The translations under genes and the position numbers were made by a program. Source: Squalus acanthias (lineage: Eukaryota). From it: DNA of 64,000 nt. The stretch is from positions 138,510,001 through 138,574,000 of the forward strand of contig CM059431.1 of assembly GCA_030390025.1 (NCBI GenBank). Reading direction: 5' to 3'. Below, one piece after another: positions 18,623 through 21,005 of this stretch. The notes under the pieces were generated by a model. The model was not told the origin of the DNA. It worked only from the letters and a program-made list of their open reading frames with translations, and ran no database searches. The stretch's first letter is position 1; each line of letters starts with the position of its first letter.

Positions 18623-19700
18623 GGGAGGTGCGTCTCGTACAGAAGAAGGACACAGGTCACATCTACGCCATGAAGATCTTGCGCAAGTCGGACATGCTGG
18701 AAAAGGAGCAGGTAGGGAGCTTTGTAACCATCATAACCTGGTTTGCCACCTTTCCCATTGGTATTCCTTCCCCTCCCAAATCTGGAGGAGCCCGGGAAAG
18801 GTTCTCTACCCTGTGACCTCTCCACCCCTCCCCCTGAAACAGAACCTGCTCCTGCTCCATCCAAGGCTGATGGCCGTGTCTGTCTGAGGACTTTGCACTG
18901 TTGTGTTGAACGGGGCTGACACCTTGTCCTTGGAGTGGCTGGATCCGGGAGGAATGTGCGGGTGCTGAATGTTCCATGTACTGACCCTCCTTGTGTGTAA
19001 TGTGTTCACAAAATACTCTCTAAATATCCGTGCTGACTCGAGTTCGCTTCTGACTAGAGAACATGAGCAGCTTCTTGTTTGAATGTACTCGAGACTGCTG
19101 CAGAAGGATTTCAATGACATGTACTGCTGGGGGAGAGGGGGTGTGACATTTTTAACTGTGACAAACACCCAGCAGAACAGTTCTGGATCCTGTGCTTCCT
19201 AACCCGGCTGTGTTTGGAGAGAGCGTGTGGAGCTGTGTAATGCAAGGTGAAGGCCAACTGTCTCGGTCTGTGTCACTGGTGCTGGGAGCAATCTGATTGA
19301 AGAGTATCAAATGCTAAAGTGTATTGGTAGCAGGGTGGTGGATGTGTTTTGTGTTTTATGTGTCTGTGCAGGGGTCGGACTGGCAGGGGGAGGAATGGTG
19401 TCAGGTGCTGGGAGGTGTCGCTTGTTTGTGTGTGTATGGGGGTGTCAGCTGGGTTGGGGGGGGGTGGTATCTGGTTGAGTGTTGGGTGACTATTCCTGGC
19501 CATGGTGAGTGGGCTGCCAGTGCTGTTCTGACATTGGGCCTGTCCACGTCACACGGGCTTGTGCTCTGTCGGGGGAAGGGTGGCCAGTCCTCGGAGTGGG
19601 TCGGTGCACTGTTGAGTTTCTCTCCCCCCCCACCCCAAGCGCCCTACTATTCGGCGGTGGAACACTGCCTGTGACAGCAAAACCTTTTGGGTTACCTTTT
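18623..19700 (+). pseudogene. STK38L: Captured NDR-kinase (STK38L-like) gene fragment: 84-nt exon 18628-18711 plus ~1 kb intron-like sequence
   Basis: Encodes (E)[28 protein letters not shown] (kinase subdomains I-II of NDR2 as I recall it), followed directly by donor-like CAG|GTAGGG. No other kinase exon seen. Confidence 0.85.
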
Positions 19701-21005
19701 CATGGATTTGTGAAAGGGAAATCATGCTTGACAAATCTTCTGGAATTTTTTGAGGATGTTTCCAATAGGGTGGACGGGGGTGAACCAGTAGATGTGGTGT
19801 ATTTGGACTTTCAGAAGGCCTTCGACAAGGTCCCACACAAGAGATTGGTGTGCAAAGTTAAAGCACATGGGATTGGGGGTAATGTGTTGACGTGGATTGA
19901 GAACTGGTTGGCACACAGGAAACAAAGAGTAGGAGTAAATGGGTACTTTTCAGAATGGCAGGCAGTGACCAGCGGGGTACCGCAGGGTTCGGTGCTGGGG
20001 CCCCAGCTGTTTACATTATATATTAATGATTTGGACGAAGGGATTAATTGTAATATCTCCAAATTTGCGGATGACACTAAATTGGGAGGCAGTGTGAACA
20101 ATGAGGAGGATGCTAGGAGGCTACAGAGTGACTTGGACAGGTTGGGTGAATGGGCAAATGTATGGCAGATGAAGTACAATGTGGATAAATGTGAGGTTAT
20201 CCACTTTGGTGGTAAAAATAGGGAGGCAGACTATTACCTGAATGGTGGCAGATTAGGGAAAGGGGAGGTGCAACGAGACCTGGGCGTCATGGTACATCAG
20301 TCACTGAAGGTGGGAAGGCAAGTGCAGCAGGCAGTCAAGAAAGCAAATGGCATGATGGCCTTCATAGCAAGGGGATTTGAGTACAGGAGTAGGGAGGTGA
20401 TGCTACAGTTGTACAGGGCCTTGGTGAGGCCACACCTGGAGTATTGTGTGCAGTTTTGGTCTCCTAACTTGAGGAAGGACATTCTTGCTATTGAGGGAGT
20501 GCAACGAAGGTTCACTAGATTGATTCCTGGGATGGCCAGACTGACATATCAAGAAAGACTGGATCAACTGAACTTGTATCCTCTGGAGTTCAGAAGAATG
20601 AGGGGGGATCTTATAGAGACGTTTAAAATCCTGACTGGTTTAGACAAATTAGATGCGGGCAGAATGTTTCCAATGTTAGGGGAAACTAAAACCAGGGGTC
20701 ACAGTCTAAGGATAAAGGGGAAGCCATTTAAGACTGAGATGAGGAGGAACTTCTTCACCCAGAGAGTGGTGAATCTGTGGAATTCTCTACCACAGATGGT
20801 TGTTGAGGCCAGTTCGCTAAATATATTCAAAAGGCAGTTAGATATAATACTCACAACTAGGGGGATCAAGGGGTATGGCGAGAAAGCAGGAATGGGGTAC
20901 TGAGGTAGCATGTTCAGCCATGAACGCACTGAATGGCGGTGCAGGCTCGAAGGACCGAATGGTCTACTCCTGCACCTATTTTCTATGTTTCTATGTTTTC
21001 TATGT
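19701..21005 (+). mobile_element. 5'-truncated CR1 LINE with open RT C-terminal frame
   Basis: HGFVKGKSCLTNL...FADDTKL...YGEKAGMGY* to 20903 without stops. (TTCTATGT)n tail at ~20980-21005. Confidence 0.93.

Follow-up and report, generated by a model that had tools for sequence, protein, structure and literature searches.

How can a kinase exon, with its splice donor and about 1 kb of the adjoining DNA, come to lie in the middle of a CR1 retrotransposon? We met this question in a stretch of 64,000 nucleotides from Squalus acanthias (contig CM059431.1, positions 138,510,001 to 138,574,000 of the forward strand; hereafter the window, with position 1 as its first letter). It is of some consequence, since strict recognition of the CR1 tail is the standing explanation for the few retrocopies of CR1-dominated genomes (PMC5470649, PMC3136929). 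The requirement for CR1 sequence is described as limiting the RNAs that can hitchhike (PMC5470649, PMC3747384, PMC3136929), and the retrocopies made by the chicken CR1 are considered negligible in number (PMC5470649, PMC3136929). We will argue that the best explanation, and in our judgment the likely one, is a 5' transduction driven by CR1, in which a partly spliced RNA of the kinase gene STK38 was copied from a CR1 tail that it carried in an intron.

All the features of the locus lie on the forward strand. The 5' part of an older host CR1 (17117-18622), which goes from the ORF2 region to the start of the RT domain and is interrupted by indels and by stop codons, 10 of the latter in its best frame, ends with AAC at 18620-18622. 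It is followed by the five letters GGGAG (18623-18627), the 84-nt exon (18628-18711), a donor GT at 18712, non-CR1 DNA up to 19700, a second CR1 segment that we will call the passenger (19701-21005), and AAC again at 21006-21008, after which the 3' part of the host CR1 resumes and runs to its own tail (21009-22297; RVT_1 E 5.2e-20). The first-pass annotation, made from the letters alone, had described this same succession of parts, and all of them were found where it had placed them. The two outer CR1 parts are both about 93% identical to one uninterrupted copy on contig C3293 (92.7% to C3293:254895-253394 and 92.9% to C3293:253396-252109), on which they overlap by 3 nt. This means that they are a single element that has been split, and that AAC, initially proposed as a possible target-site duplication, is indeed one. 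The hallmarks of TPRT are all present, namely the AAC/AAC duplication, a 3' end at the tail of the element and a 5' truncation, here in exon 3. To the right of the insertion, the host CR1 (21006-21305) differs from its relative at 6 of 300 positions, compared with about 7 per 100 elsewhere in the 3' part, which is probably due to a constraint on the RT domain.

The origin of the insert was sought by searching the genome of the species with positions 18620-19700. This gave 7 scored matches: the window itself, a 98% match on C3293, an 88% match on contig C2214 that is restricted to the exon, and four short repeats. The match on C3293 is 98% identical over query positions 7-1081 and is thus not a chance one. 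It belongs to a kinase gene that is intact: its 14 coding exons, on the + strand, give a translation with no internal stop. The exon peptide, which comes from the kinase N-lobe, matches NDR kinases, with STK38 as the best PDB match (6bxi, E 6.6e-12). As identity alone is uninformative for naming the source gene, a protein tree was used, with 24 rows that include 22 of the 120 database proteins listed and no tetrapod STK38. In this tree, the C3293 gene groups with shark STK38 (99/98), the paralogue on C11/C2214 groups with STK38L (100/99), and two teleost rows named '38-like' fall inside the STK38 clade. That the source is STK38 (NDR1), and not STK38L (NDR2) as it had first been named, is therefore well but not fully supported by the tree. 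The STK38L-like paralogue is itself scattered in the assembly, near 120.02-120.15 Mb of C11 and on contig C2214; the first coding exon is found 115 kb past the last one and on the other strand, and the unplaced contig, of 13 kb, holds exons 2-4.

Between positions 18626 and 21000 of the window, the insert differs from the source by 21 substitutions in 2,373 nt and 3 gaps. These substitutions are distributed as 0/86 in the exon (compared with C3293:222635-222720), 11/989 in the intron (1.1%) and 10/1,306 in the CR1 (0.8%). The first-pass annotation had asked whether the non-CR1 DNA (18712-19700) is the intron following the exon, and whether the same CR1 sits there in sense. Both are the case: this DNA corresponds to the first 989 nt of STK38 intron 4, GT donor included, and the source intron, 11,578 nt long, carries the identical intron/CR1 junction, with the CR1 in sense 989 nt into it. 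Each side of the source CR1 has an identical 5-nt flank that matches the tail repeat as well, as for an element that inserted directly. The interval 18623-21005 is consequently read as a 5'-truncated retrocopy of STK38 pre-mRNA in which 5 nt of coding exon 3 and the complete exon 4 are followed by 989 nt of intron 4 and by a truncated CR1 of 1.3 kb. All 7 of the scored matches being accounted for, neither this search nor a second, stricter one gave any further copy of the kinase insert, which would make it single-copy in this assembly. The passenger, 5'-truncated, is a member of a young CR1 family (40 scored copies at 95-100%) and is open for 400 codons, with 0 stops. Its counterpart in the source, by contrast, has lost 1 nt and contains stops; this damage may be either later decay or an assembly error.

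The right end of the insert falls exactly on the tail of the CR1, and none of the remaining 9.3 kb of intron 4 was copied. This tail comprises a hairpin (20938-20976), the putative RT recognition site, followed by three repeats of 8-9 nt (20979-21005), without poly(A). The hairpin folds alike in the passenger (z -2.1), the source (z -2.3) and the host tail (z -3.4), while a longer stretch of 111 nt reaches a z of only -1.3. A hairpin and an 8-bp microsatellite are the tail features described for CR1 (PMC5729268), and the passenger tail is close to the amniote CR1 motif given in that work. Duplications of target sites are reported to peak at 3-5 bp for the L2 and CR1 clades versus 13-15 bp for L1 (PMC4245944), and the 3-nt duplication of the insert fits the former range and not the latter. 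The passenger also contains a non-LTR reverse transcriptase domain (RVT_1 E 3.3e-24), and we treat it as a putative CR1-clade LINE, a label that comes from the tail features and from the earlier naming. The third repeat is complete in the window, while the source stops after its first 5 nt. In eel LINEs, slippage during priming has reportedly been proposed as a model, and the completed repeat fits such a slip. However, another copy of the family (C7:38943963) aligns to the whole window tail without a gap, so that the completed third repeat is not unique to the kinase insert and is only supportive of slippage. In the source, an ATTAAA lies 56 nt past the tail; the 11.6-kb intron has 7 ATTAAA and 4 AATAAA, and contigs cannot show RNA ends.

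At the left end, what matters is whether the RNA had been spliced upstream of exon 4. Exon 3 of the source ends with GGGAG, the 834-nt intron downstream of it ends with TACAG, and it is the exonic ending that is present in the window. GGGAG is therefore the end of the preceding exon, a point that the first-pass annotation had wanted checked. In two samples of one study, RNA-type contigs are identical to the window over 18623-18713 and extend leftwards into exon 3 and rightwards into exon 5, which means that these five letters joined to exon 4 are real mRNA. Since AG is common to the end of the exon and to the native acceptor, only three of the five agreeing bases (GGG) are informative for splicing. 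The earlier reading of an upstream intron spliced and a downstream one retained is thereby supported, and on the letters of this junction we hold it very likely that intron 3 had been removed before copying. Among the contigs, which show such linkage poorly, none joins exons 3 and 4 to intron 4 within a single sequence. The same intronic tail could have served an unspliced pre-mRNA, if reverse transcription had stopped at the acceptor AG and three G had been added in the 5' joining. Indeed, about half of the zebrafish ZfL2-2 inserts are reported to carry extra 5' bases, often taken from the flank, and direct 5' joins to be absent for ZfL2-1 in DT40 cells (PMC4245944); a GGG is also present in the host flank, 11-13 nt upstream of the insert, and additional G-rich bases are likewise seen at the 5' junction of the second exon copy discussed below. 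This would nevertheless demand that synthesis stop no more than 2 nt from the boundary of the exon and that each of the three added bases agree with exon 3, and the RNA-type contigs match from exactly the first inserted base. The likelihood ratio of the spliced form over the unspliced one with extra bases was 10-530 over 18 settings, all with assumed inputs, and we regard the unspliced route as unlikely. The insert also differs from a classical processed pseudogene, as it retains intron 4 and has no poly(A).

A CR1-driven transduction would have taken place in four steps, and it is anchored on the source, the orientation, the two junctions and the duplication, all of which are observed. A young CR1 first inserted, 5'-truncated and in sense, 989 nt into STK38 intron 4, as is shown by the source gene, which carries this CR1 with its 5-nt flanks. 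A transcript from the STK38 promoter would then have lost intron 3 and kept intron 4, as suggested by the 5-nt junction. This RNA could have been either nascent and primed internally, or cut near the ATTAAA found past the tail. An active CR1 ORF2 protein, acting in trans, would have bound the hairpin and the 8-nt repeats of this RNA, nicked the older CR1 on C7 (the chromosome of the window) and primed reverse transcription in the repeats with one slip, a step suggested by the 3' end exactly on the tail, the completed repeat and the absence of poly(A). Finally, synthesis ended 5 nt into exon 3, and the ends were joined with a duplication of 3 nt, as both junctions record. Judging from scores rather than alignments, no private CR1 changes common to the copy and the source are apparent, and the intron and CR1 divergences are alike; the copy thus probably arose soon after the CR1 had entered the intron.

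The first-pass annotation had offered two mechanisms, the licensing of the pre-mRNA by an intronic CR1 tail, which the source locus supports, and a template switch of the RT, which can be dispensed with, given that the source has the intron/CR1 junction, whereas the junction of a template-switch chimera would be absent from it. The switch nevertheless deserves to be weighed in two forms, both starting on an ordinary young CR1 RNA and moving to STK38 RNA. In one, the switch occurs inside the 99%-identical CR1 stretch, and the product would be indistinguishable from that of the transduction. In the other, it occurs at the register with the host break that will be discussed below, and the STK38 intron gains its CR1 later, by repair from the C7 copy; this form would account for that register, at the price of two rare events. 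In favour of a switch, positions 19701-19900 of the copy are 100% identical to another member of the family while 3 sites differ in the source, the 3' half of the source CR1 is matched with a better score by 29 copies than by the window, and template switching by the CR1 RT has been proposed for bird SINEs (PMC5729268). Against this, the source CR1 has its own 5-nt flanking repeat matching the tail, the usual mark of a direct insertion; the intron and the CR1 have diverged to a like extent, as expected if they were copied together soon after the arrival of the CR1; and the second case also has a CR1 at its parent-like locus. We thus consider a template switch quite unlikely.

Two other explanations were weighed. 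A duplication or break repair at the DNA level could have moved a genomic piece of STK38 into the host CR1, and 2,375 of the 2,383 nt of the insert are in fact colinear with the genomic source, with the CR1 sequence common to both (about 77% identical) offering homology. However, the letters at the left end are those of the mRNA rather than of the genome, the insert stops on the right precisely with the CR1 tail, and the host was duplicated by 3 nt, neither shortened nor replaced; homologous repair would moreover leave one CR1 3' half and not two. The junctions thus largely refute this scenario, which we hold to be highly improbable. An assembly chimera of two CR1-rich loci could be suspected from the fact that both ends lie inside a high-copy repeat and that the source is on an unplaced contig. 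Yet DNA contigs cross the left junction (18622/18623), spanning 18538-19622 and 18574-18655, the latter with 0 differences; they come from two samples of two studies, one of which may be the assembly's own sample, and from the 4 of 24 candidate runs that were examined. The copy and its source also differ at 21 sites and 3 gaps, and a misjoin would create neither a splice junction nor a target duplication. The insert is therefore not an assembly artefact, and a chimera is extremely improbable.

The proposed transduction of STK38 can be compared with several known systems, and the closest is that of the human SVA. In the SVA 5' transductions of LINC02916 and UQCRC1, as reported, exons 1 and 2 are spliced, transcription reads through into intron 2, and the copy ends at the SVA 3' end (PMC12593883). 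The kinase insert has the same logic, with a host promoter, spliced upstream exons, read-through into the next intron and an end at an intronic non-autonomous element, all within target duplications; as in a 5' transduction of the SVA type, the duplication encloses upstream host sequence along with the element, and the source locus has that element at the matching position and strand. SVA is however moved by L1 via poly(A), whereas the carrier here is a 5'-truncated CR1 ending in a hairpin and 8-nt repeats, and the absence of poly(A) together with the 3-nt duplication sets the insert apart from L1 mobilisation. It thus works like an SVA transduction but is not one. A foreign RNA bearing a CR1 3' tail is also what is described for the CR1-mobilised SINEs TguSINE1 and PittSINE (PMC5729268) and for tail sharing between SINEs and LINEs (PMC3747384), but TguSINE1 and PittSINE have tRNA heads, Pol III transcription and many copies, whereas the insert has a coding exon and an intron, depends on a host gene promoter and is single-copy by search. 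With partially processed retrocopies (PMC5470649) and L1 processed pseudogenes, it shares a reverse-transcribed host RNA, a splice junction and 5' truncation; unlike them, it has neither poly(A) nor the 3' end of the gene, its duplication is short and priming took place inside an intron. In LTR-mediated template-switch retrocopies, as described (PMC5131818), a partial gene piece also lies between retroelement sequences of the same orientation, but there the flanks are one element and two switches are involved. In the kinase insert, by contrast, the downstream CR1 came along from the source intron, and the outer CR1 served only as the landing site.

The first-pass annotation had judged that this would be an unusual route of gene capture. 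That judgment holds for the carrier: in the full-text literature, mostly outside subscription papers and supplements, we found no report of CR1 5' transduction of host exons, which does not establish its absence, and the strings 'transduc' and 'retrocop' do not occur in the main text of a 2026 survey of the CR1 group (PMC13343379). It does not hold for the anatomy, which is already known from SVA, so that the new part is the tail-stringent LINE as the mover.

The landing site has one feature that the transduction model leaves unexplained, which is that the passenger CR1 starts at the same ORF2 bond where the host CR1 is cut, and that the two are about 77% identical from this register point onward. 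With eight other CR1 copies spanning the point in 258,604 bases, the chance that a random same-strand landing falls within 3 nt of it is about 1e-4, and it rises to 2.5e-3 if a nested same-strand insertion is taken as given. A truncation hotspot finds no support, as 0 of the 20 young-family copies examined, out of 40 matches, end there. An insertion hotspot finds none either: there are 16 tail-to-motif junctions genome-wide at the register point versus 16 at a control motif about 110 nt downstream, which has one degenerate base, both sets being judged by matched letters alone. Of the 16, 3 have the exact junction of the window, the window included. The loci C4:131128662 and C23:42434967 share the tail-to-host junction letters of the window, and the kinase intron is absent there. 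The register finds no support as a rule, being absent in the second case (host break at about 2,770 and passenger start at about 1,480 of the reference copy) and in another nested same-strand CR1 of the window, at 30814-32238, where the offset is about 840 nt in CR1 coordinates.

We lean towards chance as the explanation of the register. Guidance by homology, with an RNA-DNA hybrid nicked at its edge, is a tentative second candidate that we would not favor. Indeed, RT would be expected at the tail end of the hybrid, priming in register would leave the CR1 unduplicated, the register is missing from the second case, and the coincidence was spotted post hoc. A switch followed by repair is very unlikely. 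The register between the cut and the passenger start is thus best kept as a separate lead on the target choice of LINEs. The passenger of the second case also begins within about 130 nt of the same RT motif.

This second case is another exon copy on the same chromosome, at C7:113586200-113587400 (113.586 Mb, 25 Mb away), of which 1,201 nt were examined. A search with 541 nt of it gave one other locus, on contig C381 (C381:55980-56780). The two share an exon, a donor, an intron stub and the start of a sense CR1, and they differ at 18 of 512 positions. Further upstream, C381 has an open exon that begins with ATG and has no CR1 match in front of it. This older copy therefore seems to stem from a gene with a sense CR1 in its intron, C381 having been read over 801 nt, short of the CR1 tail and of further exons. 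The leads to the identity of this gene, B-box-like, are weak (0.86 or less). We are inclined to think that the intronic-tail route recurs in this genome. Two cases in 73 windows would extrapolate to about 1,600 per genome (190-5,700), a rough and probably high figure, as it assumes the window size, counts only annotated windows and draws both cases from one chromosome. A stronger proposal, that intronic sense CR1 tails make pre-mRNAs routine substrates and that RNA-DNA homology also placed this cut, appears doubtful when both parts are taken jointly. If true, it would mean hundreds to thousands of partial, intron-bearing gene copies missed by intron-loss screens, and a LINE insertion site chosen through RNA-DNA homology, with the CR1 stretch of the RNA pairing with a resident CR1.

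The kinase insert obeys the tail rule and yet shows a way round it, as the tail is available to every gene that has a CR1 3' end in sense in one of its introns. As CR1-group elements are reported to make up 22-34% of the genomes of sharks and rays (PMC13343379), such genes should be numerous. As the products keep an intron and have no poly(A), screens based on intron loss would presumably not count them. Its value is that of a clean and young example of a stringent LINE copying host genes, to which a second, probable case can be added. Each such copy moves an exon with its donor site and is thus raw material for exon shuffling, although the kinase copy is probably inert.

Most likely, this retrocopy is a dead fragment, without its own promoter or start codon. 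A fusion protein was considered and rejected: exon 4 is in frame with the host ORF2, but a stop lies 42 codons upstream, in addition to the stops of the host 5' part. As for expression, none of the listed runs that contain the insert is recorded as RNA; two low-depth intron contigs come from runs guessed to be RNA, and they could be DNA or source pre-mRNA.

The rest of the window is rich in repeats. A satellite array of a 26-bp unit (12-13204, about 528 copies, 89% matches) runs off its start, and near-identical units of 3.1 kb (99.7-99.9%) occupy 34331-46660, in tandem and as a large inverted pair around 40016-40020. The latter array is either a very recent duplication or a feature of the assembly, and a part of 100-150 nt of its units recurs on C3293. 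The nested CR1 at 30814-32238 is another same-strand CR1-in-CR1 insertion. Minisatellites are found at 15119-16178 (311 bp), 22629-23097 (G-rich, 11-27), 30120-30482 (85) and 54370-55273 (41 bp), and a part of the 311-bp unit recurs directly after the host CR1, at 22298-22489.
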